From: a candidate division WWE3 bacterium
GTDB lineage: Bacteria > Patescibacteriota > 4484-211 > GCA-002791395
Length of the DNA: 64,000 bases
Assembly: GCA_013335095.1 (NCBI GenBank)
Contig: JAAXWF010000004.1
Span: 74,740 to 138,739, forward strand
Reading direction: 5' to 3'
Of the stretch, positions 3,369-61,400 are shown in pieces; position 1 is the first letter of the stretch; the number at the start of each line of letters is the position of its first letter. The notes under the pieces were generated by a model. The model made no database searches, was not told the DNA's origin, and saw only the letters and a list, made by a program, of their open reading frames with translations. Position numbers and translations under genes: made by a program.

Positions 3369-3710
3369 TCAAGACATCGGATACGTTGAATTAGAATTCG
3401 GCTCGCCAGTTTTTTTATCATGAGCATTCTCATGCTGTGGGAGGGGAAATATTCGAGTAAGAATCGCTGAAGAAATTGCATAAAAAATAAGTCCATAAAT
3501 CAAATATCCATCTACAGGAAATAGAACCCAGAAAGCGTAATAAATAACCTTCGTGTATCCTTCCAAGAAGTTATTGATATTAGGAATCTCCAAAAGAGCT
3601 AGAATACTCCCTAATATATATAAACCTATGAAGCCCATTGCAGTAGATATAATAAATAATAGTACCCAATGTGCCACCTTTCTACTAATTCTCATAATTT
3701 TTTCATACAT
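3369..3710 (-). CDS. Small membrane protein
   Basis: 113 aa with three hydrophobic segments. Confidence 0.35.
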   Translation of the reverse strand: MYEKIMRISRKVAHWVLLFIISTAMGFIGLYILGSILALLEIPNINNFLEGYTKVIYYAFWVLFPVDGYLIYGLIFYAISSAILTRIFPLPQHENAHDKKTGEPNSNSTYPMS

Positions 3711-4227
3711 ATCGTAAGTTAAGAATAAAGCAAAAAAATATATAATTCAAATTATGGCTTAAAAATTGATACAATACCGAACAATGCACGAATTTCGTTA
3801 TGGAAATATATTTGAGAAAGAAACGATCAAAGACGCAATAGAGTTATTGCCTATAATATGAATCAATGACGGCACATTCAATGATCCAATCACTCAAATT
3901 AAATTAGTACATGACAAATTACAACGATTAGAACAATACTTACAAGGGTCAGTTCTTATATGTCCAATAGACTACGCGACCGGTGTTCAGTTCTTCGATT
4001 TTTTTGTCAATAACGATAAACAGGAACCTCGACAATATGATTCGCCGACAAGACTTCCTAATGATATCCTGCAACTTTGGAAAAAATATCAGGATCGCGC
4101 GGGATACTGCGTAATTAATAATATTTCATATGGACAATCAAAAGAGGAGGGTTATTGGATTAGTGAAGATACAATCTTAAACGAAATTGAACAGAGCTTT
4201 TTATCAATCGTTCCCCAACGATACCAG

Positions 4228-4629
4228 ATGCTTGTGGAGGTAATGAACACAAGTAATGACGAAACACACAGAGGCGCGGCTGCATACTTGATACATTGGC
4301 AGCCCAATCATCAATGCGCCGTAAATGACCTACTCATTCATCTCGAAAATGAAACCCGTGATGGCGTACAGAATTACGCCTTGCGAGGGCTAATCGCACT
4401 GGTAGAAAAGGCAGATATACCTAAAGATAAGCTATCCATTATCAACGCACGACTCTACGCAAACGCAACCGCACCCATCAATAAAACACTGGCACTACTA
4501 TACTTACTTTTGGATAAGCATAAAATTGAAAAAAGTGATTTAAATAACCAAGTGGAGCGAATTGCTCAACTGGCAACAGTAAAACGACCTAATATCAAAA
4601 CATATGCAGAAAAGATCATAGGGATTTAA
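4228..4629 (+). CDS. Hypothetical protein; likely the C-terminal part of a longer reading frame
   Basis: First ATG of a frame that is open without stops from 3862. An upstream in-frame ATG at 3784 is separated from it by a single TGA at 3859-3861 (see findings). Confidence 0.4.
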   Translation: MLVEVMNTSNDETHRGAAAYLIHWQPNHQCAVNDLLIHLENETRDGVQNYALRGLIALVEKADIPKDKLSIINARLYANATAPINKTLALLYLLLDKHKIEKSDLNNQVERIAQLATVKRPNIKTYAEKIIGI

Positions 4630-4875
4630 GTATTCAACAAGTTGAGGTGATTATGGGGTCAAGCTATATTTGACAGAACTATTCCCTTAGATGAAGACCA
4701 TTTTTGATAGTCGTTATATTATTTTCCTCGCAGCAAGAATGCTTGATATTCAGGCTACCAAACTCCTCCTAACGCAACTTGAATATAATTCAGGTACCGA
4801 TTTTATCATCGGATGAACTTTAATTTCACATACAAACAGTTGAAAAGCACCCAACCATTCCAACAATTTTTACTT

Positions 4876-34078: not shown

Positions 34079-34377
34079 CCTCAAGTAGCCTATAATCATT
34101 GCATTAACCCCCTAAACATCCTATAATTAAAGTGCGTACAGCTACGCAAGTAGTTTTACGTACTTTGGTAATACCAAAGATGCACTTTTTTATACGCATG
34201 AATTTGAACTAATGTAACGTTCACGTTGCTCCTGCGCCTTATCCAGGCCGTTGAGGATATAATAGTTATGTCTTCTACGGCCCGGATAAGAGTGTCGGCC
34301 TTACAAGCCGACTCGGACAACCCCGCGCAATCGGGGTTTATTGGTGGCGGTTCTACCGCCCAGATGAGGAGATCGCA

Positions 34378-34683
34378 ATGGATACCGATCTGCTATGGAG
34401 CCGAATCGAGGAGCGGGCGGCGGTTATGGCGATAGTTGCGAGTGCGATACTGGACGAGGGGGGCACTTTCCCCGTCCGTTTTAATCGAGCACTCAAAATG
34501 GTCGCTGAAAATGAGATCGAACTTACGGTGAGGGAGTGGATACAGGTCCTTCGGGGCCTTGGCATCTACGACTTCAACCAGTACTTCGGGCTCATTGGAA
34601 ACGTCCGTGTACCTGGCGGAACGCTCCCGTACTACGATAAGTTCGATCGGGAGATGTCTGCTATCGATTGGCACGGTTTCTAA
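34378..34683 (+). CDS. Hypothetical small protein (island cassette gene 1)
   Basis: 101 aa, about 58% GC. Preceded by hairpin GGTGGCGGTTCTACCGCCCA and a GAGGAG RBS. Confidence 0.45.
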   Translation: MDTDLLWSRIEERAAVMAIVASAILDEGGTFPVRFNRALKMVAENEIELTVREWIQVLRGLGIYDFNQYFGLIGNVRVPGGTLPYYDKFDREMSAIDWHGF

Positions 34684-34721
34684 AAAGGTGGCGGTTCTAC
34701 CGCCCACAAGGAGAGGTACCA

Positions 34722-35126
34722 ATGGCGACCTCAGCAGGCAGCCGTGCGCAGCTCAAGTCCGTGATCGAGGCCCTCGGCGAAGTCTACACAGTCGCTCTGG
34801 ACCTGGGGTACAATCCCCAGCCGGGGCTTGACCGTAGAATCTTCGCCCGGATGGCTAGTGCCGCCCATAACGGCACGCACATCGTGATCGGAATACAGCG
34901 GGCCGCCAAGAGGGCTAAGGAGCTGGGTATCGAGATGAATCCCACCGATTGGCTCCCCTATCTGGGGGCCTTTGGGATCAACTCGTACGAGCTTCTGCTG
35001 CTGGCGATCGGGGACTACACGTTCCAGATCGTCGGCGATGACCTTACCAGCGCGATTGTCGCCGGCCTCAAGCCCTGGGACTTCCCCGGGTATGAGGGTT
35101 GGCGGCCGGAGGAATCCGGCAAATAG
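34722..35126 (+). CDS. Hypothetical small protein (island cassette gene 2)
   Basis: 134 aa. Start chosen at the ATG 7 nt after AAGGAGAGG, which follows a second copy of the GGTGGCGGTTCTACCGCCCA hairpin. Confidence 0.45.
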   Translation: MATSAGSRAQLKSVIEALGEVYTVALDLGYNPQPGLDRRIFARMASAAHNGTHIVIGIQRAAKRAKELGIEMNPTDWLPYLGAFGINSYELLLLAIGDYTFQIVGDDLTSAIVAGLKPWDFPGYEGWRPEESGK

Positions 35127-35286
35127 GTTCCGATTCGGCGTTTGCCGGGGCTGAGGGGGAGCAATCCACCCAAAGTCCCGGCCTTTTTTGTTATATCTCT
35201 TTTATTTCAATTTTTATTTGACGACCTACAATAATTAACCTATAATAATTTCGTCTTTTTCATCCGGATAACAAGGAGGTGGCTCA

Positions 35287-35868
35287 ATGAGCCAGAACCA
35301 AGGAACGCTACCAACCATTCTGGTAGACCTGTCGTTCAGGTATGCAGGAACGCTCCTGCATGCTACTCACATTGATGCCGATGGTAATGCCCAGGTTGAG
35401 TTCCCGATCAGCTTCGGCGGAGGACGACTCCGAAGTGGTCGACGCAAGAGTGAGTACTTCATCCTCACCCTAGAACTTTCTGAGCTAGTAAGAATCATGG
35501 CTCTCTTCCAGAACCTGATTCACCGGATCCCTGAGGTCCAGGCGATGGCCGAAAACGCCATCACGGTGATCTCGCAGCAGGGGACGAAACTAAACCGGGA
35601 GGTCACGATCAAGCCGATCGTACGCACCCTCGTGGTTGCGACATCCCTCCCATCACGGGATGAGTCAGAGGCCGAAGTTGTTCTGGCGGCGGGAACGCAG
35701 GTGAGCATCTGGGGAGTATGTGACCCAACTCACCCGTACTTCTACGCCACTATCGGGGGAAACCGTTCGGCGCTTATTCCGGCAACCAATGTCGAAAACG
35801 GCGCGGATCTGGCGACCCGAATCTTCAAGCAGGCGGCGGAGCTATTCCGCCCGCTGGGAGGTGAGTAA
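35287..35868 (+). CDS. Hypothetical protein (island cassette gene 3)
   Basis: 193 aa. Preceded by the conserved TATAAT-N10-TTTTCATCCGGATA-AAGGAGG leader. C-terminal half resembles the next ORF (GTQV..G motif). Confidence 0.45.
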   Translation: MSQNQGTLPTILVDLSFRYAGTLLHATHIDADGNAQVEFPISFGGGRLRSGRRKSEYFILTLELSELVRIMALFQNLIHRIPEVQAMAENAITVISQQGTKLNREVTIKPIVRTLVVATSLPSRDESEAEVVLAAGTQVSIWGVCDPTHPYFYATIGGNRSALIPATNVENGADLATRIFKQAAELFRPLGGE

Positions 35869-36173
35869 TGAGCAACCCCGGTCTTGACGAGCTCCCGCTT
35901 CGTATAACTGAGCGGGTTCATGACATGGTGAGAACGGAACCTGCCATAGTGGCTTACACCACGGTAGGGCTCCAACTGACCTCAGAAACCGCTGGTGCCC
36001 AAATTCTACCGATAGGCACACAAGTGCTCGTCGTCGGCATATTTGGGTACAATCCGCCACGACTAATCGTCATCTGGCCGGATGGATCTGAAAGTGGTGT
36101 GGAGAAGTCCATCATTGAAGATGGAGAGGCATTGATTACGAGGATCACTAAGCTCCGTGATCCATCGGCCTAG
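35868..36173 (+). CDS. Hypothetical small protein (island cassette gene 4)
   Basis: 101 aa. TAATG stop/start overlap with gene 3 (translational coupling). Followed by a strong terminator. Confidence 0.45.
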   Translation: MSNPGLDELPLRITERVHDMVRTEPAIVAYTTVGLQLTSETAGAQILPIGTQVLVVGIFGYNPPRLIVIWPDGSESGVEKSIIEDGEALITRITKLRDPSA

Positions 36174-36194
36174 CCATTTGAAGTGACAAAACCA

Positions 36195-36227
36195 CCCCAG
36201 GGACTAAAAAACCTGGGGCTTTTTTTA
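36195..36227 (+). terminator. Rho-independent terminator (CCCCAGG-loop-CCTGGGG + T8)
   Basis: 7-bp GC-rich stem, 10-nt loop, followed by TTTTTTT. Lies between the convergent island cassette and pgk. Confidence 0.6.
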
Positions 36228-36239
36228 TTTTAGGGAATA

Positions 36240-37463
36240 TTATTCTTCACGGAGCATTTCTAACGCAGGGAGTTTTTTACCGGCAATAAATTCTAACGTC
36301 GCACCACCGGCTAAACTAATGTGAGTAAACTGAGTAGGATTACTAAATCGATTGATTACTGCAATCGTATCTCCTCCGCCAACAATCGAATCATTCTTAG
36401 AATTGGCCATAGCTTGAGCAACTATTTTTGAGCCATTTGCAAAACGATCATCTTCAAACTTTCCCATCGGACCATTCCAAAATACTGTACCCGATTTATG
36501 GATAATATCTGCATACATTTGCGCAGTAGCCGGACCAATATCGAATGCAGCCCAACCCGGTGCGACAGCTTGTTTCCCATCGACATACATAACTTGAGTT
36601 AAAAACGAATAATCCGAACTCTCTCCTACCACAACATCAACTGGCATTACAATCTTGTCACTTTTCTGAGCTTTTTCTAATAACTCTTTTGCATATTCAA
36701 CCCAATCTTTTTTTACCTTCTTTTGAGCATCCACAAAAACATCCTCGACATATGAATCAGCCATATCATGACCGGCAGCTTTCAAGAAAACATTTGCCAC
36801 GCCACCACCAACCAAAAACTGATCTGCGACGTTAAATAAATTATTAATGGCATCGACCTTATCCGAAACTTTTGCACCGCCGATAATTACGGTAAATGGC
36901 CGTTTTGGCGATTCGAGAATTCCCGACAAACTAGACGCCTCTTTTATGCAGTAAAATCCGGCATAACTCGGAAGATGACGCATGATACCAGTTACAGAAG
37001 CATGAGCTCGATGTGCTTGAGGAAAAGCATCGAAAACAACAACCTCACCATTTTTAGCAAGTTCCAATGCAAAAGAGTCATCATCGGTCATCTCTTCTGG
37101 ATGAAAACGGGTATTTTCGAGCATAACAATCTCACCAGGATGCATACGGTGTATAAAGGATTGGACTTCGTCTCCAATGCATTCATCTAATTTTTGTACT
37201 GGGTGATTTAATAATCGAGCTAAAACTTCGGCGTGAGGTGTCGTACGAAGAGATTCAACAACTTTACCATCAGGTCGCCCAACAAAGGTTAAGATAACAA
37301 TTTTGCATTGTTTTTCTAGAAGGTATTGTAACGTTGGAAGAGTTGCTTCTATTCGGCTTTCATCGGTAAGAGTACCGTCATCTTCGACATTTATATCGTA
37401 TGGGGAACGATATAAAACAGTCTTATCAGTAAGATCAGCAGTTTCGAGTGAACGCAAACGCAT
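36240..37463 (-). CDS. pgk: Phosphoglycerate kinase
   Basis: 407 aa. N-domain substrate-binding residues, hinge and C-terminal nucleotide-binding GGGA motif region (IIGGAKVSDK, GGGVAN). Confidence 0.85.
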   Translation of the reverse strand: MRLRSLETADLTDKTVLYRSPYDINVEDDGTLTDESRIEATLPTLQYLLEKQCKIVILTFVGRPDGKVVESLRTTPHAEVLARLLNHPVQKLDECIGDEVQSFIHRMHPGEIVMLENTRFHPEEMTDDDSFALELAKNGEVVVFDAFPQAHRAHASVTGIMRHLPSYAGFYCIKEASSLSGILESPKRPFTVIIGGAKVSDKVDAINNLFNVADQFLVGGGVANVFLKAAGHDMADSYVEDVFVDAQKKVKKDWVEYAKELLEKAQKSDKIVMPVDVVVGESSDYSFLTQVMYVDGKQAVAPGWAAFDIGPATAQMYADIIHKSGTVFWNGPMGKFEDDRFANGSKIVAQAMANSKNDSIVGGGDTIAVINRFSNPTQFTHISLAGGATLEFIAGKKLPALEMLREE

Positions 37464-37466
37464 TAT

Positions 37467-38933
37467 TTATAAAACCTCTTGTATTGTTATTGTATTCGTT
37501 GAACCCGGAACACGCCAGCGGCGACCGTGAACAATTAATAAACGATTACCTGGATGAGCGATACCTTGAGCCTTTAAGGCATCGACGGCTTCTTCAAGTG
37601 ATACGTCAGTCTCTTCGGGGAACGGTAGGTTAACCGGTTCAATACCATACGATAACTGGAGTTGACCGCGAATTGTTTCATCAACGGTAATTGCAAAGAT
37701 CGGAATATCAAGACGGAATCGCGATAATGAATACGCAGTGCGGCCAGTTTCACTAAAAACGATAATCGCATCGATATCAAAATTTTTGCGAGTTGAAACG
37801 ATCTTGTTTACCGCATAGGTTAAAATGTCGGTTTGATCCAAAGCTTTTTCCATAGATAAATCAGGAACATACATGTGGGCCTTTGTTTCATTGAACTCGG
37901 CGATTTTTGCCATAGTACGTACGGCTTCAACCGGATATTTACCCTGGGCACTTTCACCAGAAAGCATAATTGCATCGGTTCCATCAAACACAGCATTAGC
38001 AACGTCGGTTACTTCGGCACGTGTAGGCATCCGTTCGGTAATCATAGATTGGAGCATTTGAGTTGCAGTAATAACCGGCTTTCCAACAATACGGCAGGTA
38101 TTAATGATTTCATTTTGCCAATAAGCGATCTCTTCGAGCGGAGTCTCAATACCAAGATCACCACGAGCAATCATTATTGCATCTGATAAAGTTATGATTT
38201 CGCCTAAATGATGCAATGCCAAACTGGTTTCGATCTTTGAAACGATTTTGGCTGGCATTTTATATTCATCCAGTTTATTTTTCAAAACATTAATGTCTTC
38301 ACCGGTACGAATAAATGATAACGCTACGTAAGCGATTTCTAAATCTTTAAATGCATCTAGAAACATAACATCTCGTTCGGTAAGTGATGGGACATCAACA
38401 TACACTGTGGGTAAATTGACTCCTTTACGATTGCCAACGGTATAATTGTCTAGCGCGGTCGCAACAACAGAATCGCCTTCTTTACGAACAACTTCAAAAT
38501 GGATAAATCCATCATCGATTAAAATAATTGTTCCGATATTTAGTTCATTGATAATTTGTTGATTAGGAATAACAAACTCTTTTTCTTTACCGGTAAAATC
38601 TGCCGAAAAATATGCTTCTTCACCAGATTTAACTTCGACAGGTTGTTTGTTTGGTGTAGCAATACGGATTTCTGGACCTTGAAGGTCTACAAGAATACCA
38701 ACCGGCTTGTTCATGCGTTTGCTAATCGAAAGAACTGATTCGATTCGTTCACGATGCCACTCCGGCTCATTATGTTTTAGATTGAAACGAAATACATCAA
38801 CGCCCGCATCAATCATTTTTTCGATAGTATCAGGAGATTCCGACGCAGGTCCGAGCGTCGCAACTATTTTTGTTCTGCGCACGTTCATTATTCTAGTCGA
38901 TGATCCCGAATAATCAACCCCCAATACATACAA
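37467..38933 (-). CDS. pyk: Pyruvate kinase
   Basis: 488 aa ORF. Real start likely the internal Met (MNVRRTKIVATLGP, near 38888). K+/Mg-binding and MIARGDLG active-site motifs. Confidence 0.85.
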   Translation of the reverse strand: MYVLGVDYSGSSTRIMNVRRTKIVATLGPASESPDTIEKMIDAGVDVFRFNLKHNEPEWHRERIESVLSISKRMNKPVGILVDLQGPEIRIATPNKQPVEVKSGEEAYFSADFTGKEKEFVIPNQQIINELNIGTIILIDDGFIHFEVVRKEGDSVVATALDNYTVGNRKGVNLPTVYVDVPSLTERDVMFLDAFKDLEIAYVALSFIRTGEDINVLKNKLDEYKMPAKIVSKIETSLALHHLGEIITLSDAIMIARGDLGIETPLEEIAYWQNEIINTCRIVGKPVITATQMLQSMITERMPTRAEVTDVANAVFDGTDAIMLSGESAQGKYPVEAVRTMAKIAEFNETKAHMYVPDLSMEKALDQTDILTYAVNKIVSTRKNFDIDAIIVFSETGRTAYSLSRFRLDIPIFAITVDETIRGQLQLSYGIEPVNLPFPEETDVSLEEAVDALKAQGIAHPGNRLLIVHGRRWRVPGSTNTITIQEVL

Positions 38934-39040
38934 AAGACATACAAATTACCAACAATATTCACATTTTATTTGATGTAGCTATGGTATTTTGCTATCATCG
39001 TGGCGTTCACACTAGGCAAGGAATAATTAAGGAGGTGGCA

Positions 39041-39910
39041 ATGCCACGGCTACATGAGCTGGAAATCACCATTACGTTAAATGGTGAAAAGTCGGTGACA
39101 AATCTCGGACGAATAGCATTACACGATGCTGTTCGAAAAATAGTCGAGATGAACCCGACGGTTGGCCCGGCAAACATGTCGGTTCGTCAAGTCGATATAG
39201 ATCGGATCCTGCCGAATATAACCTTTCGCCAGCAGACGAACAGTCTATTTTCCCAACTGCTGGCAGAGCGAGTAGAAGCAGATCCGCAGCCACCCCTTCC
39301 CCACCATGTGAATGAAGAGGTATACGCCATCTGCCCCTGGTGCCGTAAAGAGGTTGGTGATGAGGTCTATCGAACTCTCAAGGATTGGAATTACATCCAG
39401 CCCGACTGGACACTGACCGACAAATTCGATGAATTCGAATGTCCACATTGCGGCCAAGTTATTGGTCGGTATTTAAGTGTGTGGCTGACCCAGCCAGTTA
39501 AACTGGGTGCGGCACTCTTTGCTAACCATCCAGTGGTGTACGGTGAACGGCTAGCTCGGTATAAAGAGCTACATTGGCTATTAGTAAATCTATCGGAAGA
39601 ACTAGGCCAATTGACACAAGTCGCGATTTTTGAACGATTTGGATGGCGCTGGAACCAGCTTCCTCCACTGGCTGAAGTGGCTCGATCAAAAGGAATTACG
39701 ATTGATCGGCGACGTAAGCAGGAACAGACGGGTCTTAGGAAATTGCGCAATCGGCGCAATGCCGAACAAATGACAGGAGCAGCCGACCCAACGGGGACCT
39801 TTGAAATATTAAGACTAAAACAGCAGATTGCTGATTTAGAAACACGGCTAAGAATATTAACCGTGGAAAACTCCAATCTGCAGGGACTCTTATTAGCTCT
39901 GCGGAAATAG
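39041..39910 (+). CDS. Zinc-ribbon protein with sigma-70 region-4-like HTH (paralog A)
   Basis: 289 aa from the ATG 7 nt after AAGGAGG. CPWC-x35-CPHC zinc ribbon. C-terminal IFERFGW...LAEVARSKGITIDRRRKQEQTGLRKLR closely parallels rpoD region 4 (LELRFGL...[27 protein letters not shown]). No region 2. Confidence 0.5.
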   Translation: MPRLHELEITITLNGEKSVTNLGRIALHDAVRKIVEMNPTVGPANMSVRQVDIDRILPNITFRQQTNSLFSQLLAERVEADPQPPLPHHVNEEVYAICPWCRKEVGDEVYRTLKDWNYIQPDWTLTDKFDEFECPHCGQVIGRYLSVWLTQPVKLGAALFANHPVVYGERLARYKELHWLLVNLSEELGQLTQVAIFERFGWRWNQLPPLAEVARSKGITIDRRRKQEQTGLRKLRNRRNAEQMTGAADPTGTFEILRLKQQIADLETRLRILTVENSNLQGLLLALRK

Positions 39911-40077
39911 AGCTAGTGTAAATACCGGCTAATGAGGGAATCTCATTGGCCGGTATATTAACGACACATACATTTCCATATCTCTCGACACGCTACCGTT
40001 TGCATAACATTATCGGCTTTGTTATCATTTCCCTGACTACAACCAGTAGTTGTTGGATAACGCAAGGGAGGTGCTCT

Positions 40078-41250
40078 GTGCCAAACCAAGACAGGATTGT
40101 CATCCTGTATGAGGTCAACGGCCATCGAGGTAGTTCTGAATACTTCGATATGACCTTTAATGATGCCCTGGCGATGTTTGTGCGGGAACGGCCGGAAATC
40201 GGTCCCCGACAGATCGCCCAGGTATTCCACGGGTTGGTCAGTAGTGAAAAGACCTACAACGGCTGGAGAGGCCGGGTCGACGCATACTACCTCAACGTTC
40301 CCCTTCCGGACCCAGATCCGATTGCCCCAGAAGTCGAAGACGAACTATCGGCCCAGTGCCCACGGTGCAAGGCCGATATCGGAGGATGGATCGTATCGAG
40401 CCTACCCCGGGACGATCTGTATCTTAACTTTGGGGTACCAAGTTTCGATTTCAGATGTCCAGGGTGTGGAACCGATTTAGAGATGTGGATACATAGCTAT
40501 TTGAACAAGCTTATGGCGGTGTTCAATGTAGTCCATGGAGGAATTGTAGAACGAGATAAGGCAGCACTGCGTTTAGTGCGCTTCTATCGCTCCGTTCAAC
40601 AGGTCCTGGTTGACCTGCATCAGCAGGAACCTGAGGTTTATAACGTCTTGGCTCATATGGTCGGACTCAAAGGAGTCTCGATTACCCAGAAGCAGGTAAT
40701 TATAGAACTGGGCCTGGGATCAGACTCCGTTCTAAGAAAGCTTATGGGTAAGGCAACAACGTTTTTGCGGCGCCACCCGCAAATGCAGGCAGCCTTCCGA
40801 TATCGGGATTTAAGCGACGAGGCAATAAATGCGTTCGTCGCCTCAGCCCAAGGAAGACAAGAAGAGGCGCTGGCAGAACTCGCGGCGCAAGTAGCCACGC
40901 TTTCGACGATGATCAATGAGGTCGCGAATCACCAACATGATGCGATCTTCAACCTCAGAGTCGAAGTGCTACTCCTGAGGGGCCTACCCCTGGCCGAAGC
41001 CCAGATCCTAGCCCTTCTTACCGTCGAGGATCTAGCGCTTACGCCAAGCCTGCGACGCTCGCTTAACATAGCACCCGTTCTCACCGAAATGCGAAACGCT
41101 GCCGGCAGAGTCTTTGCCGGTAATCTTTTGATCTGGCTCAGGTCAAAAGACCGAGAACAGGTAATCAAAAGTATCCCCAGAATGGGTCCATCTGGGATGG
41201 CCAGTATTGAAGGGGCATTCCTCCTTCTTGGGATTCAAGTTTACCCGTAA
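40078..41250 (+). CDS. Zinc-ribbon protein with sigma-70 region-4-like HTH (paralog B)
   Basis: About 390 aa from the GTG after GGGAGG. CPRC-x36-CPGC zinc ribbon. HTH segment VGLKGVSITQKQVIIELGLGSDSVLRKL. N-terminus parallels paralog A (MP..I.I..NG...GP). Confidence 0.5.
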   Translation: MPNQDRIVILYEVNGHRGSSEYFDMTFNDALAMFVRERPEIGPRQIAQVFHGLVSSEKTYNGWRGRVDAYYLNVPLPDPDPIAPEVEDELSAQCPRCKADIGGWIVSSLPRDDLYLNFGVPSFDFRCPGCGTDLEMWIHSYLNKLMAVFNVVHGGIVERDKAALRLVRFYRSVQQVLVDLHQQEPEVYNVLAHMVGLKGVSITQKQVIIELGLGSDSVLRKLMGKATTFLRRHPQMQAAFRYRDLSDEAINAFVASAQGRQEEALAELAAQVATLSTMINEVANHQHDAIFNLRVEVLLLRGLPLAEAQILALLTVEDLALTPSLRRSLNIAPVLTEMRNAAGRVFAGNLLIWLRSKDREQVIKSIPRMGPSGMASIEGAFLLLGIQVYP

Positions 41251-41367
41251 TAAACCAGAGCTGGTCGGCATCGCCGATCAGCTCATCTTTCTACATCCAT
41301 TCGAACTCAACAATCATACTATAGGTGCTATAATTAATCCGTCGCTATTGGCACGTATCGGAGGTCC

Positions 41368-41776
41368 TATGACCAAAGGATTCTTGGACAAGGTTAAACT
41401 GGCCAAGGGGCCAGACATGAGTTTCGCGGCCTTTGAACAAGCATTTTCGGCATTTGACGAATTCAACGCGAATCCCACCAAACGATTCGTCATCGTCTTT
41501 CTGTGGCCTATGGGTGAAACCATGAGTATGCAAGGGCTGAACCGCCCACTCGACTATGCCTTTGCATATGTTGATGGATCTACTCCGATTCCCTATCGAT
41601 TAATGGAGATCGGCCTGGGGTGGAATATCTCGTCCGACCCACATGAGATATCAATCGCAGAATTTATACAGCGTTTGACCGATGAATTCGGCGATCGATT
41701 TGCCGGAATCATTCAGGCATCGGGTGAATTCTGGCGATTGGCCGAGCTGGCGATTGAAGCCAGCAAAGGACCCTAA
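41368..41776 (+). CDS. Hypothetical protein (end of GC-rich island)
   Basis: 136 aa from the ATG after GGAGG. Followed by hairpin CGGGAG-N12-CTCCCG. Confidence 0.35.
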
Positions 41777-41850
41777 GATTAGCAGCTATAACCGACTGAC
41801 GGATCAATCTTATAACTTAGTCGGGAGGTGGTTTTCCATCTCCCGCTTAC

Positions 41851-42621
41851 TTATTTGTATTCTTGCATCCGATGACAATCATTCATCGTGAAATGTCCAT
41901 TCCGGGTGCGAATAATCGAAAAAGTTGTCAGAGGAATTTTAATCAGAGTACCAATATCTCGAACCAGGGTTCGAATATACGTTCGTTTCCCTGTTACCGC
42001 AGAGCAAGACAGAACCACATATTTTTCCACACCGGCCTGCTGGGCTATTCTTAACGATACTGACCACATATCTAGAATTTGCTGCTGGCGAAAGTCTCCT
42101 TGTACAGAATTAATACGCACAGCCAACGTCTCGGATAAATCTGTTAGAGATATCGTATGCGACTTGACATACTCAAGCTTCGAAATGTGTACGGTTTCGG
42201 TTGGTAAACTCATGTCTTCACCATCTCGAGCACGATCAAATGCCGATTTCCCTTGTACCCGTTTTGCCGAAAAAGGGTGTACTTTCTGATTTATAGAACC
42301 AACAAATTGTGGAATAGTATCGGTAATCGAATGTGTAAGATCATTTTCTTCAATTTGATCTTGAGAAACGTCCTGCACCAAGCCGAGTAGATCATCGGAA
42401 TCGGTAGAAAAGCCAGCCAGTATTTCAAATGAATACTCTTTATCAACAGATGCCAGTTGTTGTCTTTTATGACGGTCATCGCCTGTTAATATAACAACAA
42501 CGCCTTCGGCTAACGGATCTAAAGTTCCGGTATGGGTAGCTGGCTCTTTATAAAAATGACCGACTGTTGCGGCTAATTGATGCGTTGAATAACCCAATGG
42601 CTTATAAACAGGTATCACCAT
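41851..42621 (-). CDS. truB: tRNA pseudouridine(55) synthase
   Basis: 256 aa. Catalytic-aspartate motif HTGTLDPLAEGVVVIL. Confidence 0.8.
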   Translation of the reverse strand: MVIPVYKPLGYSTHQLAATVGHFYKEPATHTGTLDPLAEGVVVILTGDDRHKRQQLASVDKEYSFEILAGFSTDSDDLLGLVQDVSQDQIEENDLTHSITDTIPQFVGSINQKVHPFSAKRVQGKSAFDRARDGEDMSLPTETVHISKLEYVKSHTISLTDLSETLAVRINSVQGDFRQQQILDMWSVSLRIAQQAGVEKYVVLSCSAVTGKRTYIRTLVRDIGTLIKIPLTTFSIIRTRNGHFTMNDCHRMQEYK

Positions 42622-44909: not shown

Positions 44910-45734
44910 TTAATAAACGACGATTTGAGTTCCAAGAGGGGCAAACGAGTACACAAATTCGGCATCATCGGCCGACATGTTGATACACCCGTGGGATACG
45001 CCGCCAGAATATCCAAACGATGAATGCCAATATGCTTCGTGGATCGCCATGCCCCGATCATATCCGCCATTGCGGTTAAGCCGTTCGACTAAATCAAAAT
45101 ACGTCACGAAATGGATATCGGGCAAGAAATAGTAATCTCCATCTGCCTCATATCCTTCCATAGTACGCGTGGCCAACTGACGGGTTGTTCGATGCAAGCC
45201 CAAAGGAGTTGGGGTTACATCACGTGCATCAGGTGCGTTCATTCTCCCAGTAGAAATCCAGGTTGCCCGAATTATCGTACAGCTATTCCCGCTACACCGA
45301 ACAAAAAACGCAGCTTGCTGGTTCCGGTCAACCAACAAACAATGATCCGCAGAGTCGGGGCAACCCAACGTGCCGAAGAAAACAGGATCGTCGAGCAATT
45401 TGACAAAACCCAGATGGACAAACCCATATGCAGTTCGCCCCCACAGGCACTGATCATTGACGCATCCCGATGGTGACGTGGCTGCCACAACTTCGAGAAC
45501 TTTTATCCGTCCGCCTTGACGAACCCTACTAATTTGCCGAGGACGATCGACACTCACTGAAATGTCGCAGCGAACATCCGGGCAAGTGCGAATATTTAAA
45601 GGTCCGTCGGTAACTTCGACCCAGAATACCTCATTTACAGGCCACTCTTCCGCTGCCCGTGCTAACCGAGGTGATGCCACTATGGTCATCGCTAGAAGCT
45701 CACAAAACCATATTGCTCCGATAAGGTAACGCAT
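44910..45734 (-). CDS. L,D-transpeptidase (YkuD domain) with N-terminal SH3-like domain
   Basis: 274 aa. C-terminal catalytic H...GVSHGCINM motif. Signal peptide. Gene is GC-richer than its flanks. Confidence 0.65.
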   Translation of the reverse strand: MRYLIGAIWFCELLAMTIVASPRLARAAEEWPVNEVFWVEVTDGPLNIRTCPDVRCDISVSVDRPRQISRVRQGGRIKVLEVVAATSPSGCVNDQCLWGRTAYGFVHLGFVKLLDDPVFFGTLGCPDSADHCLLVDRNQQAAFFVRCSGNSCTIIRATWISTGRMNAPDARDVTPTPLGLHRTTRQLATRTMEGYEADGDYYFLPDIHFVTYFDLVERLNRNGGYDRGMAIHEAYWHSSFGYSGGVSHGCINMSADDAEFVYSFAPLGTQIVVY

Positions 45735-46781: not shown

Positions 46782-48524
46782 ATGCATCTACGTCTCTGGA
46801 AGCTCCTTGAGCCGTTCCACCGGATTTTCGCCTGGTACGCCGTGTTAATCATCGTCTTTGAAGGCCTTCAGATTATTGAAGGTTATGTCATGAGCGGTGT
46901 TATTACCCTGTTCAACAGCGGTATTACGCCTTTCATGTGGATGATGCTATTCACGGCAATCGTCATTTTCGACGAAGCATTCATGCGATTAGGGAATCGG
47001 ATCGACTGGTACGTCATTGTCAAACAAGACTACCCAATCTTCCGGTATCTCAAAACAAAGGCCACACAAAAGTTTCTAGCAATGGAAATGGCCTGGCATC
47101 AGCGTATGAACTCAGGTACGCTGTCCGGGAAGGTGAACCAGGGCGTATCGAAGGTAAATGACATGGTCGATGCATTGAGCTGGGAGTTTCTCCCAACGAT
47201 CATCCAAACCATACTTTCGATCATTCCGCTGCTTATCTTAAGCCCAGTAGTGGTGCCGATCGCAATCGTTGGGTTGGGTCTGTTTCTATGGATTAGCGCA
47301 CTCAGCTATCTTGAGCGTCGCCCATTAAGAACAGAACGACATGATGCTTACGAGGAAGATTGGAGATTGGCAACGGAGATCGTCCGAGCGACCGAAACGC
47401 TGCGGATGTTTGGCCAGGAAGACCGGTTCTACCAGGAGTATGAAGAACTCCATGAGCGGATCATGGAGCGCGGTAAGATCGAAGCCCATATGGGCGTTTT
47501 TCGGCATAATCGCTGGCGAATTACGGTGATGAACATCACCCGCCGCGCGATTTTGGCGGTATGGATCTGGCAGTTGTATCAGGGTACCCTTGATATCGCC
47601 GGACTCATCTTCGTCAATGTGTTGATGGAAAAGCTTTTTCATGCCTGCTGGCGGCTAGCCCGTCTATGGGAAAAAGCCGTCGAGGCAAACGAAAGCGTTG
47701 ACCGGTTGTACAACCTCCTCTCGGAGGAGCCGCGGCCACATACCGGGACAAAAACCCTGACAGAGTGTGGGGTTCCGGCAATCAACCTGGATGGAGTGTG
47801 TTTTTCGTATGATGAGGAATACGCTCAAGATTCAGGGGCGTTGCATGATCTTAGCCTAGACATCAATCCGGGTGAGATTATTGCCGTTGTTGGCCCATCC
47901 GGTGCAGGGAAAACGACACTGCGCAAGATCGTGACCGGGCTCTGGCCGATTCAGTCGGGTACCATTACCGTAGCCGGCATTGAGCTATCGGATTGGTCAT
48001 TGCAGCATCTGCGCCGGCTATACTCGTATGTCCCTCAGGGAGATGACGTGTATGTGTTCGACAACACGGTTGCGTTCAATATCAGGGTTTCAAAACCCGA
48101 CGCATCCGACGAAGAAGTAGTTCGGGCGGCTGAGCTGGCTGGAATCAGCGAGTTCATTGAAACGCTTGAGGAAAAGTACGAGACCAAGGTAGGTGAGCGA
48201 GGTATTCGCCTATCCGGTGGTCAAAAGCAGCGAATCGCCCTGGCCCGCGCGATTCTAGCCGATCGACCGATCCTAATTCTCGATGAGGCAACGAGTGCAA
48301 TCGATGCCATTACCGAGAGAAAGATTCAGTCGCTAATGAGCACGATCCTATCAGGCAAGACTGCGATCATCATCGCTCATCGTCTTTCAACGGTGTGGGA
48401 TATCGCTGATCGGATCATCGTAATGGAAAACGGCCGGAAAGTGGCCGAGGGAACGCACGAACAACTGGTACTTCAAGGTGGATTGTATGCTGAGATGGTC
48501 AGCCTCCAAACCCACCACGAGTAA
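46782..48524 (+). CDS. ABC exporter, fused permease/ATPase (MsbA/LmrA-like)
   Basis: 580 aa. Six N-terminal TM helices, Walker A GPSGAGKTT, signature LSGGQKQRIALARA, Walker B ILILDEATSAID. Gene is about 55-58% GC. Confidence 0.8.
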   Translation: MHLRLWKLLEPFHRIFAWYAVLIIVFEGLQIIEGYVMSGVITLFNSGITPFMWMMLFTAIVIFDEAFMRLGNRIDWYVIVKQDYPIFRYLKTKATQKFLAMEMAWHQRMNSGTLSGKVNQGVSKVNDMVDALSWEFLPTIIQTILSIIPLLILSPVVVPIAIVGLGLFLWISALSYLERRPLRTERHDAYEEDWRLATEIVRATETLRMFGQEDRFYQEYEELHERIMERGKIEAHMGVFRHNRWRITVMNITRRAILAVWIWQLYQGTLDIAGLIFVNVLMEKLFHACWRLARLWEKAVEANESVDRLYNLLSEEPRPHTGTKTLTECGVPAINLDGVCFSYDEEYAQDSGALHDLSLDINPGEIIAVVGPSGAGKTTLRKIVTGLWPIQSGTITVAGIELSDWSLQHLRRLYSYVPQGDDVYVFDNTVAFNIRVSKPDASDEEVVRAAELAGISEFIETLEEKYETKVGERGIRLSGGQKQRIALARAILADRPILILDEATSAIDAITERKIQSLMSTILSGKTAIIIAHRLSTVWDIADRIIVMENGRKVAEGTHEQLVLQGGLYAEMVSLQTHHE

Positions 48525-48584: not shown

Positions 48585-48899
48585 ATGTACTTCGTATATA
48601 TACTAAAGTGCGCTGATAATTCCCTGTATACCGGGATTACCAACAATATTCAAAAACGACTCTCGGCCCATTTGTGTGGTAACGGCTCTCGATTCGTTCG
48701 TTCGCGATTGCCGGCACAACTGGCTGCGGTAATTGAGGTAACCACCAAAAATGAAGCGCTGAAATGGGAATATTTAATCAAATCGTGGTCAAAAAATGAG
48801 AAGGAAGAATTTATAAAACAACAAAATCAGGTTGAGTTAGTCAGCAAACTGCAACAGGAAGTTACGATAAATATCCTTGGTCGTGACGATACCAATTAA
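48585..48899 (+). CDS. GIY-YIG nuclease superfamily protein (UPF0213-like)
   Basis: 104 aa. N-terminal YFVYILKCADNSLYTGITNNIQKRLSAH GIY-YIG motif. Confidence 0.7.
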   Translation: MYFVYILKCADNSLYTGITNNIQKRLSAHLCGNGSRFVRSRLPAQLAAVIEVTTKNEALKWEYLIKSWSKNEKEEFIKQQNQVELVSKLQQEVTINILGRDDTN

Positions 48900-49437: not shown

Positions 49438-50013
49438 ATGATTAAGTGGATTAAATCTCGAATGTATCCATTGTCTGATAAATCCGACGCAGAATTAATC
49501 GCAGCGGCAAAACGCGGCGATAGGGATGCTTTTGGGCAATTATATTTGCGCCACCTTGATGCGATGTTTCGATATATTTACTTTCGGACGGGTGATTCAC
49601 TAACCGCCGAACAGATAGCTGCTGATGTGTTTGTGAAAGCATGGAAAAAGCTTGAATCGTACCATCCAAAGGCTGGAAGTTCATTTACATCGTGGATTTA
49701 TCGAATCGCCCGCAACCGGATTATTGATTATTATCGGACTCGCAATACTCGTAATCAATCACTCTCAATACAGATGGAAGATGCCCATCAACTAACATTC
49801 GATGAGCGGTTAGCAAAAATCGATAATGAACGAATGATTGAACAGTCGTTGCAGATTCTGACTGAAGAGCAGCGCGAGGTGATCATGCTTAAATATATCG
49901 AACGACTCGATTACAAGGAGATCTGTTCAATAACCGGTAAATCGAATATGGCAGTGAGGGCATTAGTATCAAGAGGTTTAAAAATATTACAAAAAAACAT
50001 TACAAAAAAATGA
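49438..50013 (+). CDS. ECF-type RNA polymerase sigma factor
   Basis: 191 aa. Region 2 (FRYIYFRTGD...AEQIAADVFVKAWKK, SWIYRIARNRIIDYYR) and region 4 (EQREVIMLKYIERLDYKEICSITGKSNMAVRALVSRGLKIL). Confidence 0.75.
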   Translation: MIKWIKSRMYPLSDKSDAELIAAAKRGDRDAFGQLYLRHLDAMFRYIYFRTGDSLTAEQIAADVFVKAWKKLESYHPKAGSSFTSWIYRIARNRIIDYYRTRNTRNQSLSIQMEDAHQLTFDERLAKIDNERMIEQSLQILTEEQREVIMLKYIERLDYKEICSITGKSNMAVRALVSRGLKILQKNITKK

Positions 50014-50822
50014 AATCGACACAATTAAAAACATCATTTGAGGAATTAAAGTCACTGACTGCTCCAGCAAGATTGCGCTTACGGATAGAAAAGCTATCGC
50101 AACAACTACCTCATAAAAATCAAAATTGGAACCGATTTAGTCGGTTTACACCCCTCAATTTAGCCCTGGCTCTATTAGTCGTAATGGCAGTGGGGGGGCC
50201 AGGGCTCGCATGGGCATCGGAAACTAGTCACTCAGGCGAAATATTATATCCAATAAAAAAACTTACACAAACTTTGCAGTTATCATTAACAGATTCTCCA
50301 AAGGAACAAGTTGATATTCATGTAGAATATGCCGAAAAGGAGATTGAACAAATCAGAGGTTCATTAGCAAATAATGAAATTGTAGCGATACCAACGGTAT
50401 CAGCAGAATATGAACACGAAATCAATGATGCAGTTCAAGTAATTCAGGAAACCCAAAGCGATACCAGTGATGTCATAGAAAAAGCGACTGAGACACTCGA
50501 TAAACACAGTCAAAAACTAGAGGAACTACTCGATCAAGCCCCTTCCCCTGCTCAAGAAACGATTGCTCAAACAATTATCTCGGTTCAAAAGACAAAACAA
50601 ATTTTGGCCGATCAGCAAGAGGAAATTCAAAAAAGAATTATTGTCCCTACAGTGCCCGCAATACCGACCGTTCCTTCAGTGCCAACCGCAATTCCGATAC
50701 CTACGATAGCAAGAACCATACCAACCATCGCATTAACGACATCACCTACTCCGACTAATATGCTAATCGAGCTACTAACTCCAACAGCAACACCCATAGA
50801 AAAACAACCCGAAGGGAGGTGA
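50010..50822 (+). CDS. DUF5667-like membrane protein, putative anti-sigma partner
   Basis: 270 aa. Gene overlaps the ECF sigma stop by 4 nt. Single TM helix, helical extracellular region, Pro/Thr/Ile-rich repeats near the C-terminus. Confidence 0.45.
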   Translation: MKSTQLKTSFEELKSLTAPARLRLRIEKLSQQLPHKNQNWNRFSRFTPLNLALALLVVMAVGGPGLAWASETSHSGEILYPIKKLTQTLQLSLTDSPKEQVDIHVEYAEKEIEQIRGSLANNEIVAIPTVSAEYEHEINDAVQVIQETQSDTSDVIEKATETLDKHSQKLEELLDQAPSPAQETIAQTIISVQKTKQILADQQEEIQKRIIVPTVPAIPTVPSVPTAIPIPTIARTIPTIALTTSPTPTNMLIELLTPTATPIEKQPEGR

Positions 50823-58457: not shown

Positions 58458-61400
58458 CTACCAGATTGCGCTCCAATATATGGTTGCATCAGTAGCAGAA
58501 GCGGATTCTACATAAATAACAAATCCATCTTTGGTGATCGATTCAACCCAGACCTTCGTATTATATGAAGGAGTTGTATTGATACTCTTTGGAGCCTCTT
58601 TCCAATCTTTAACCACAGGGATTCGGACTTGTCCGGCCGGTAGCGCAATTGAGCCACGGATCGAATCATTGGCATAGATCAAACCTTCTTTAATCTTGAG
58701 GTTTCCATCGATATCTACTTCGACTGCGCCGCCCATTATATCGAGGCTAGCCGCTCGAGTTGGTTGCAGTTTCAACGAAGATGCAACTGTTTCTAAGGAA
58801 CCGTTTTCACCATTAATCGTCAACATTCCGTTAGTTATATTCTTATTTACGACCAATTCTCCAACCGTTGCCTTTCCAAGAACAGTTAATGAATCCGAAA
58901 TTGCAGCATTTGTTAACTCGACTGAATTCATCTTCAATGTAGCACTTGTTTCTAATAGGGTGGCTAAATCATTGGCCGCTCCGCTAAAGGCACTCGGCTG
59001 ATACCAACCAGCTTGAATCATGACCAAAATTTGAGCACATCGAGATCCCGACGGCGCACCCTTAGGACATGCTATTGGCTCACCAACGCCATTATTCGGA
59101 TCAAATGGAGAAAGGGCTCGGCCAATTACCCAACCTGCATCAATTGCTTTTTGTCCAAATCCAATAACATCACTACCCGAGATTGGATCTCCAACTTCGA
59201 TATTTCCCGCTGTTGAGACTACATTAACCGGGATACGTCCGTTCAACGCAACGGCAACTTCTTTCTTGCTGCGTGGATCATTGCTTTGTCCAAACCCACC
59301 AAGTAAGACACCTGGTTTTTCAGATATTGCTCCGAGTACAGCACTTCGACTATTAGCTTTCTTTACGAATTCAGTTTCATAATCACCACTCTGAAATGCG
59401 CCAGGTACTGCATCTGGAACAGTTTGTGGATCAATCGAAACAAGGTCGCCAGCCTGTATAGATTCATCCAGTGTTGGGAAGTTTTCCGCTATATCATCAA
59501 TAGCAAAACTCGAAGAAATACCATATACAGTACCAGCCGCACGTGAAGCATCAATACAATCATCAGCGGTATCTAAACTATCGTCAGCACAAATAGCACC
59601 ATAGGCTAAGATTCCACTACCACCAATATTGGTTGAGGTTAAGGTCTGATCGCTACTTAATACAAGATCGTTGTTAATAGACACGTTACCAGCAGCTTCT
59701 AGAATAATTCCACCACTGTTGAATGTTCGCATTGTTAAGTCATTGCTTTCAAAGCTCTCACCCGCTTCGATGGTAAATGGACCATTCGATTTAATATAGG
59801 CGGCGGTTTGATTACTGAATAACATATCATACGCAATGGCAACGTCACCGGCAGCATTAAAGGAGTGTGGTAATTCCGAGGTAATTGCAGTTTCGGTAAT
59901 AGAGAACAACGATGAAGTACCGTCACGGGCAATAAATACATTACCAACGTTACCGTTAGAACCGACAGTGACCGCAAAAACATCACCCGTTGCAGTGGTC
60001 GCTGATCCAGGTGTCCAGTTAACGTTCATGACCGTACCGGTAGTTAATGCGGTTGATGATGACCCAAAGGTATATGCCGTACCGGTTGTTAATGAATTGG
60101 AGGCATACGTTAATCCGTTAGTTGTAGTACCAGTGAAGTTTTGTGTCCAAGTATTCGAGCCTTGGTTCACAACGAGCGCTGCGTCTAAGTCCAACGTGTC
60201 CTCAAGCTCAGCGAAGTCGAGACAATCGGTACAAGCAAAATCAGTCGCGTTAACCGTATCACCACTAAATGTAACGCTAGAGCCGGTCGTTGATACGGTA
60301 AGATTTCCTGATGAGTCAGTCTGAAATTCACTATAAACAGATCCATCAGTATATGTTAACCGAAGTTGCGCGGCAGATGCATCTAATACATCAAGTCGAC
60401 GATCGGGTCCGGAAGTACCAATACCTACATTAGCCGAAAAATAGTTTGAATCTTCGCCAGTTGAATAAATACCCCAGGCAGTGGCGGCAGCATCTGTTTG
60501 GGTAAATGCGGAATAATATCCATATACGTTATCGTTACCGGTGGCGTTTGCATCAATGGTGATATCATTTCGGATTGCATACATTGTTCGGGTTGAACCT
60601 GTATTTGTATCTTCAAAGTCAACCGAAAAACCAATCGCATTGCCAGTCGAAGAATCGATATTTACATCAATGACACCTGCCGTAGTGGTTGTATCAGTAG
60701 CCGCTGCATCAATTTGGAGATAGTTTGCGGCAGGTAAACTCCATACAGTGTTTCCTGAATCATTAACTGTTAAAACCGTGGTTCCGTTATCCTGAACGAT
60801 AAAATCACCAGTCGATGACAAGTTCGTGGTAACATTACCCGCACCGCTCGCAGTAAAGGTTAAATTATTAGCACCCATTGTGATACCCGTTGAAGCATCA
60901 AGGGTCATGGCATCAATAAGTTCAGTAAAATCGAGACAATCAGTACACACAAAGTCAGACGCCGTAATCGTACTACTGCTAGCCAAAATGTTTCCACCAC
61001 TAAATGACCACTCATCATTTGTAGTGTACGTAATCGTTCCGGTATCTCCATCTGACGCAAACATTGAAAGTACGGCATTAGCGGTTGCTCCAGTGCCGAT
61101 ACGTGCGGTGTTAGCCGAGACGTCAACGCTAAATGCGGACGCCAGAGTCGATCCACCAACCGCAAAATCCTCAGCTGTATCAGTTAAATACGTAATACCA
61201 GTGCCATCGGTCCATGGACTTGAAGCACCGCCACATGTCTGCCATTCAAATGTAGAGCCCGTTGATTCATAAGTTAGACATTCTTCATCAGCCTCTGAAT
61301 CAACCGAAGCCATATCTACGGGTAAAAGAGTATCATCTAAGATCTCACCAGCACTAATTGATCCAGTAGGCAGCACAACCTCACTGTCGCCGGTACCATT

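Follow-up and report, generated by a model that had tools for sequence, protein, structure and literature searches.

The DNA analysed here, a 64,000-nucleotide stretch (the window) from a candidate division WWE3 bacterium of the Candidate Phyla Radiation (CPR), contains a 2.9 kb island between pyk and truB. The island carries three separate genes on the plus strand, here called A, B and C. Attention was focused on A and B, which a preliminary description made from sequence alone had presented as paralogous zinc-ribbon proteins ending in a helix-turn-helix (HTH) like region 4 of sigma-70 factors (sigma-4). The open reading frames (ORFs) proposed for A and B were both recovered, with strong ribosome-binding sites (RBSs) and the same starts as in the NCBI annotation, and so was the third small ORF, C; apart from these, the ORF list shows no small gene within the island. 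All three genes follow a GC1 > GC3 > GC2 pattern of G+C content (GC) over the codon positions, indicating that they are genuine coding sequence, and the intergenic spacers of the island are poorer in GC (0.36–0.46). Overall GC is 0.483 in A, 0.523 in B and 0.493 in C, a range of 48–52% that lies below the 50–60% first attributed to the ORFs. Antisense ORFs occur within A and B (for example, at 39391–39876); conservation in homologs falls on the A and B frames, and the antisense ORFs look like the shadow ORFs usual for GC-rich coding DNA. The product of gene C is acidic (isoelectric point, pI, of 4.7) and gave no homolog or family match in Pfam (E ≤ 10), NCBIfam (E ≤ 0.1) or PADLOC.

A and B are related through their N-terminal parts. 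BLASTP aligned the two proteins at E 2e-10, with 24% identity across 251 amino acids (aa), and the likeness was confined to the first ~145 residues, which comprise a beta-beta-alpha domain and a four-cysteine (Cys4) zinc ribbon. When the C-terminal halves were compared alone, no similarity was detectable (E 2.2). The paralogy put forward for the pair thus holds for this N-terminal module (N-module) and fails for the C-terminal halves. Each protein contains exactly four cysteines, all of them in two CPxC knuckles (C98, C101, C134 and C137 in A; C94, C97, C127 and C130 in B). These are the knuckles first described, but 32 and 29 residues separate them, rather than 35 and 36.

Among 5.8 billion clusters, a word-indexed search recovered self-matches only. 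When 1.84 billion representatives clustered at 50% identity were searched exhaustively by HMMER with a profile of A and B, one true relative emerged (E 2e-5), a 435-aa protein designated P0004 that is encoded at positions 3392–4699 of a 5453 bp Logan contig from SRR22388279; another candidate from the HMMER search, P0003, was set aside as a junk ORF made of repeats. The family as recovered has three members in ~15 billion proteins. P0004 is collinear with A across A residues 1–284 (E 3e-12), while its match to B is restricted to B residues 7–143 (E 3e-10). It retains the CPWC...CPHC pair of A together with ~20 other invariant positions, and the four cysteines are invariant across all three proteins. 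The family profile found nothing in viral, genome and metagenome contigs, nor did tblastn find anything among phage and plasmid records; PHROG gave no significant match for A, B or C (best E 0.03) and PADLOC none. A check proposed at the outset, for homologs in phages, plasmids or Actinobacteria, thus found no relatives of A or B in the collections searched.

The N-module consists of a beta-hairpin plus helix (residues ~4–37) and a conserved P-x-x-G-P motif, joined by a linker of variable sequence to the zinc ribbon. Residues ~4–37 form the sole moderately confident globular part of the AlphaFold2 (AF2) models. Pfam zinc-ribbon models gave many matches to A, B and P0004, all below threshold. 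The two CxxC knuckles kept in homologs identify a predicted zinc ribbon of the structural class in both A and B. Searched against the PDB, the N-module gave a marginal match (E 0.009) to residues 289–331 of 7whg_G, a Lokiarchaeota gelsolin, at its C-terminus; the match spans A residues 89–131 of the profile, and the ribbon of the gelsolin is CPxC-x29-CxxCG. This likeness is probably a generic ribbon resemblance that says nothing on function. The ~145-residue N-module, acidic (pI 4.6–5.7) and with a long-spaced Cys4 zinc ribbon, appears to be new and to define a very rare family.

In A, the N-module is followed by a domain related to region 4 of primary sigma factors. Compared with region 4 of the window's own rpoD, 15 of 39 residues are identical (BLASTP E 3e-4). 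An independent sigma-4 hidden Markov model (HMM), built solely from five primary sigma-4 sequences, scored A at 18.4 bits, a value reached by none of 3000 shuffled sequences, the best of which scored 10.9 bits. A residues 172–244 also gave weak matches to the NCBIfam RpoS and RpoD_Cterm models (E 0.0015 and 0.005, respectively). When a profile of the three family members was searched against the PDB, 59 of the 60 matches listed were region 4 of RpoD/SigA, RpoS or SigB; the best match had an E-value of 2.9e-6, and the alignments span regions 4.1 and 4.2 and the C-terminal tail. The Pfam Sigma70_r4 model, which had been suggested as a check, was passed by P0004 (28.1 bits against a gathering threshold, GA, of 24.1; E 1.4e-6). 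The resemblance to rpoD claimed for both proteins thus stood for A and was not sustained for B, which is considered below.

Residue positions are given here in Escherichia coli sigma-70 numbering, in which RFG corresponds to R562–G564. According to ungapped alignments, A keeps RFG, T583, R586, R588, E591 and the entire LRKLR motif (595–599). The residues that read the −35 element are changed, R584/E585/R588/Q589 being replaced by I/D/R/K, so that only R588 is kept. After LRKLR the tail of A is degenerate, while that of P0004 is retained. The sigma-4 segment of A is basic (pI 10.8). Recent gene conversion from the host rpoD into A was considered and rejected, nucleotide identity being 44% overall and 28% at third codon positions; the absence of a nucleotide trace of recent conversion indicates that the relationship between A and rpoD is old. 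At the level of sequence, these comparisons indicate that A and P0004 carry a complete region 4 whose ancestry lies in the primary (group 1) sigma factors.

Region 2 is missing from the family. In agreement with the preliminary description, Sigma70_r2 gave no match in A or B at E ≤ 1, and it gave none in P0004 at E ≤ 10. GerE (PF00196), Sigma70_r4_2 (PF08281) and other HTH families likewise gave no match, either to A and B (E ≤ 1) or to their isolated HTH segments and P0004 (E ≤ 10). Judged by domain content, neither A nor B can be a sigma factor, since the core-binding, −10-reading region 2 is absent. Neither outcome that would have overturned the preliminary description was seen: P0004 passes Sigma70_r4 and the Cys4 set is conserved, and A is not an ordinary extracytoplasmic function (ECF) sigma factor.

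P0004 extends further than A. Its chain runs from the zinc-ribbon module through sigma-4 and a coiled coil to two domains like the C-terminal domain of the alpha subunit of RNA polymerase (RNAP), or alpha-CTD. A custom HMM detected both alpha-CTDs at 39.9 bits and NCBIfam rpoA matched at E 4.6e-6; the Pfam score, 21.3 bits, is slightly below the GA of 23.8. The pair shares 31% identity with the canonical tandem alpha-CTDs found in tetratricopeptide repeat (TPR) proteins from JGI metagenomes, where seven near-identical contigs (L006–L012) encode a 443-aa TPR protein ending in two canonical alpha-CTDs (L009, 4471–5802). The alpha-CTD region is absent from A. An alpha-CTD at the C-terminus of B, suspected by eye, was rejected: it scored 1.2 bits, 117 of 3000 shuffles did as well, and hhalign against the P0004 repeats gave E 0.12. 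The contig that encodes P0004 is itself a mosaic, the P0004 gene having 48–52% GC amid neighbours of 32–36%. These low-GC neighbours are a DUF5678 gene and an aspartyl-protease-like gene; the P0004 gene also adjoins a class-IV aminotransferase-like gene of ~50% GC, and ~750 nt without a called gene lie on each side of it.

Directly after sigma-4, A and P0004 have in common a helix rich in heptads, in which the motif E-N-x-x-L-[QR]-G is conserved. No other helix of the AF2 model of A is predicted with such confidence (predicted local distance difference test, pLDDT, ~76), and the aligned segment of P0004 gave weak leucine-zipper and coiled-coil Pfam matches. From sequence and model it is a reasonable inference that A dimerises through a leucine-zipper-like coiled coil. 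In B, residues 1–143 are followed by a 245-aa helical region whose middle and C-terminal segments are basic (pI ~10.2–10.3), so that in A and B alike an acidic N-module is set against a basic C-terminal half.

Each gene of the island has its own expression signals (see table). The promoter-like sites of A, B and C have the motif TGyTATmAT in common. Promoter-like sites in the region are no more numerous than shuffle expectation, so the promoter upstream of A is rated as no more than plausible. The GTG start of B is supported by its RBS, AAGGGAGG, and by the N-terminal alignment with A and P0004. In place of the two strong hairpins reported at first there are three, one per gene (z −6.0, −7.0 and −6.6); the 65-nt stretch at 39911–39975, which includes the first, folds at a minimum free energy of −26.5 kcal/mol (z −5.96).

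Features of the island and its flanks, in window coordinates
Feature	Position	Strand	Description
pgk	36240–37463	−	Flank gene, ~40% GC
pyk	37467–38888	−	Flank gene, ~40% GC; Pfam PK
Promoter-like site of A	38970–38998	+	TTGATG-17-TATCAT, extended −10 TG; TGcTATCAT (consensus scan)
RBS of A	39029–39035	+	AAGGAGG, 5 nt ahead of ATG (sequence read directly)
Gene A	39041–39910	+	289 aa; NCBI HGA91_06460, hypothetical protein, same start
A zinc ribbon	39326–39460	+	aa 96–140, CPWC-x32-CPHC
A sigma-70 region-4 domain	39554–39772	+	aa 172–244; RFG...LAEV...TIDRRRKQEQTGLRKLR
A C-terminal coiled coil	39797–39904	+	aa 253–288; Asn within heptad core
Hairpin after A	39922–39956	+	15-bp perfect stem, terminator-like, no clear T tract
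Promoter-like site of B	39999–40028	+	TTTGCA-18-TGtTATCAT (consensus scan)
RBS of B	upstream of GTG	+	AAGGGAGG
Gene B	40078–41250	+	390 aa, GTG start; NCBI HGA91_06465, hypothetical protein, same start
B zinc ribbon	40351–40476	+	aa 92–133, CPRC-x29-CPGC
B candidate degenerate sigma-4-like HTH	40609–40776	+	aa 178–233; basic, pI 10.3
Hairpin after B	41258–41284	+	Intrinsic-terminator-like: 12-bp stem, T-rich tail; −22.6 kcal/mol, z −6.96
Promoter-like site of C	41307–41334	+	TCAACA-16-TGcTATAAT (consensus scan)
RBS of C	upstream of start	+	GGAGG
Gene C	41369–41776	+	135 aa; NCBI HGA91_06470, hypothetical protein
Hairpin after C	41822–41845	+	Terminator-like, faces truB 3' end; z −6.59
truB	41851–42621	−	Flank gene, ~40% GC; Pfam TruB_N

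The island differs in composition from its surroundings. As had been reported, it is richer in GC than its flanks, with sliding-window values of 0.48–0.54 against ~0.40. GC at third codon positions (GC3) is 0.45 in A, 0.56 in B and 0.54 in C, and 0.28–0.40 in 16 of the 18 other genes measured outside GC-rich islands. The arrangement is not an assembler chimera, since an independent Logan assembly (L001, SRR11449211) has the same gene order, with an identical B gene. In a related WWE3 metagenome-assembled genome (L005, PCSU01000015), whose Pyk and Pgk are 52% and 55% identical to those of the window, a single strand carries, in order, truB, one small gene, pyk and pgk at a uniform 37–39% GC, and the distance between truB and pyk is ~440 bp as compared with 2.96 kb in the window. 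The GC3 contrast and the short interval in the relative indicate that the island is lineage-specific and compositionally foreign, in line with the foreign origin first suggested. On this sequence evidence, a horizontally acquired, lineage-specific segment carrying three monocistronic genes is the best reading of the island. Family scans found no integrase, transposase or terminase at the island; no flanking direct or inverted repeats marking an insertion site were found there, and no tRNA was found near it. The small ORF in the truB–pyk interval of the related genome (754–1143, same strand) resembles, by eye, a pterin-4a-carbinolamine dehydratase.

Other parts of the window are also unusual in composition. 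Beyond the pgk–pyk operon lies a second orphan island (34100–36200; GC 0.53–0.62, GC3 up to 0.79) with four genes that matched no family (34378–34683, 34722–35126, 35287–35868 and 35868–36173) and that form two weak paralog pairs (E 0.003–0.008). It contains a 44-nt repeat (34343–34386 and 34687–34730) made up of a GGTGGCGG/CCGCC hairpin, an RBS and a start codon. Its proteins show no sequence relation to A, B or C. Foreign-looking composition was further seen in a YkuD L,D-transpeptidase gene (44910–45734; GC 0.50, GC3 0.46) and an ABC transporter gene (46782–48524; GC 0.51, GC3 0.59), the latter followed directly by a small GIY-YIG ORF (48585–48899). The genome thus looks mosaic, several segments of higher GC apparently having been acquired within 15 kb. 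Elsewhere in the window, an ECF sigma gene (Sigma70_r2 plus r4_2/r4 in precomputed Pfam) is translationally coupled to a gene for a DUF5667 protein (49438–50822), and the last part of the window is taken up by a minus-strand ORF of unusual length, 1835 aa (58458–63965).

With roughly even confidence, we propose that A is a dimeric, sequence-specific DNA-binding regulator of transcription, built on a sigma-4 HTH and using the zinc-ribbon module as an interface. Two sigma-4 HTHs, paired by the zipper, would read −35-like half-sites of altered specificity, and the N-module would offer a surface for binding a partner or a signal. B keeps the N-module, and its basic helical C-terminal half would have diverged beyond recognition; binding to nucleic acid, or pairing with A, may nonetheless be retained.

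Several observations weigh against this proposal. Taken alone, A and B give no match to Pfam Sigma70_r4, even at E ≤ 1. The AF2 models, computed from three-sequence alignments, are poor (pLDDT 53 and 44), so they offer no check on fold and dimerisation; a Foldseek search of the PDB with the A model found no match at E ≤ 0.001. Upstream of A, B and C no common operator-like motif was found beyond the extended −10. B aligns in the right register with rpoD (BLASTP E 1.4) and with the sigma-4 profile (hhalign E 0.095), and on the primary-sigma-4 HMM it scores 2.7 bits, which 104 of 3000 shuffles equal (p ~0.035). The window's bona fide ECF sigma factor scores equally low on this HMM. These statistics do not demonstrate a region 4 in B, which may carry a diverged sigma-4. 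Finally, sigma-4 has a second natural ligand, the tip of the beta flap, and DNA binding is not the sole reading of such a domain.

The strongest alternative, which we consider unlikely, makes use of that second ligand. The sigma-4 of A would dock on the beta-flap tip helix, replacing the housekeeping region 4 or competing with it, and the zinc-ribbon module would touch another RNAP surface or a region-2-bearing partner, so that host transcription is redirected or inhibited, in a logic like that of SigO-RsoA or of phage T4 gp33 and AsiA. Inheritance of a whole primary region 4, including 4.1, is consistent with such an RNAP-directed mimic or half of a split sigma factor, as are the conserved RFG and LRKLR of A, the C-terminal tail helix of P0004 (H..IR.IVD), which in sigma-70 packs against the flap, and the addition in P0004 of another RNAP module, alpha-CTD. 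Split sigma factors also exist, SigO-RsoA, cited in PMC7826278, being an example. However, no region-2-like partner was found, C and the N-modules having no match to Sigma70_r2 or any other Pfam family at E ≤ 10; the tail after LRKLR, kept in P0004, is degenerate in A; phage context is absent; and a coiled coil right after sigma-4 suggests a dimer, which would be unlike the seating of sigma-4 on the flap.

A broader and rather less probable proposal is that A, B and P0004 form an RNAP-associated 'pseudo-sigma' class of CPR bacteria, with a sigma-4 taken over from the housekeeping sigma factor on the beta flap or the −35 element. Here the zinc-ribbon N-module may stand in for region 2 and give a second hold, either on RNAP or on a partner. 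If so, the class would be a promoter-recognition device made of the DNA-reading parts of RNAP without those that bind the core; promoters might be occluded, marked or re-targeted by it, and the alpha-CTDs of P0004 would add the reading of UP elements.

It is more doubtful that A binds DNA in a non-transcriptional role for what is left of a mobile element or prophage, its sigma-4-type HTH being no more than a means of recognising DNA; it would then act like a small terminase, in excision control or in partition. Its foreign composition, orphan status and basic HTH fit such an origin, as do the orphan neighbour genes and the second orphan GC-rich island nearby. However, the island showed neither genes for an integrase, transposase or terminase nor flanking repeats or a tRNA, PHROG, PADLOC, phage and plasmid records gave no match, and the HTH is nearest specifically to primary sigma factors. 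Lower still we place the view that A and B are functionless, decaying remnants of transferred genes. A family of three in so large a collection is what decay might leave, and the C-terminal half of B has no detectable similarity to A or P0004. Against this, A and B are long, unbroken ORFs, each with a strong RBS, a promoter-like site and a terminator, and the four cysteines and ~20 further positions are invariant at 22–25% overall identity, which argues for purifying selection on the N-module. An ordinary ECF or other full-length sigma factor with an unrecognised region 2, favoured by the region-4 similarity and nothing more, is refuted by domain content, since Sigma70_r2 finds no match, a beta-rich domain and a zinc ribbon make up the N-terminal 150 residues, and the real ECF sigma factor of the window (49438–50013) shows both r2 and r4.

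The regulatory repertoires of CPR bacteria are very small, and the control of transcription in these organisms is almost unstudied. A would represent the −35-reading domain of a primary sigma factor reused outside a sigma factor, and the family a case in which promoter-recognition modules of RNAP have been recombined into free-standing factors. Should A bind promoters or the beta flap, it could provide a simple handle on promoter recognition or sigma competition in an uncultivated lineage; with just three members known, the practical weight is limited.

Among known systems, the ZAS anti-sigma factors (Fin/CsfB type) are small zinc-binding modules that act on the sigma/RNAP machinery, as the family may do. 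The likeness is limited to a CxxC knuckle: the HxxxCxxC motif is absent, the residue four positions before the first cysteine being V and D for the two knuckles of A, L and S for those of B, and never His. P0004 gave a faint Fin match (E 0.007) covering a single CPHCG knuckle only, and neither A nor B matched an anti-sigma Pfam family. Primary sigma region 4 (RpoD/SigA, PF04545) is far closer, A and P0004 being homologous to it along the whole ~70-residue domain, with the RFG, T-x-E/D-R-x-R and LRKLR motifs. Unlike a primary sigma factor, A lacks regions 1.1–3, having an unrelated zinc-ribbon module in their place and a coiled coil after region 4, and its −35 contact residues are altered. The non-RpoA alpha-CTD proteins (PF03118; TPR plus tandem alpha-CTD, as in the JGI contigs above) resemble P0004 in ending in two helix-hairpin-helix, alpha-CTD-like domains, which A does not have and for which the C-terminus of B fails to score.

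SigO-RsoA is a two-subunit sigma factor with a polypeptide that carries sigma-4 without sigma-2, according to 2009 work cited in PMC7826278. A has the same content in this respect, but no gene for a sigma-2-bearing partner was found beside A or B (Pfam; for C, also NCBIfam). To our knowledge, neither a zinc ribbon nor a coiled coil is part of SigO-RsoA. Stand-alone sigma-4-type HTH regulators of mobile elements, such as the phage late activators of the ArpU/RinA type, are small proteins with a sigma-4-like HTH and no region 2, and they control transcription. A differs from them in having no PHROG or phage match, a different N-module and an HTH that is specifically primary-sigma-like. By its domain content, A is neither a sigma factor, a ZAS anti-sigma factor nor a LuxR-type regulator, and no phage, plasmid or defence protein. 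By analogy, A would work most like the stand-alone sigma-4-type regulators; what sets it apart from these is the descent specifically from primary sigma region 4, the unprecedented N-module and, in P0004, the fusion to alpha-CTD.

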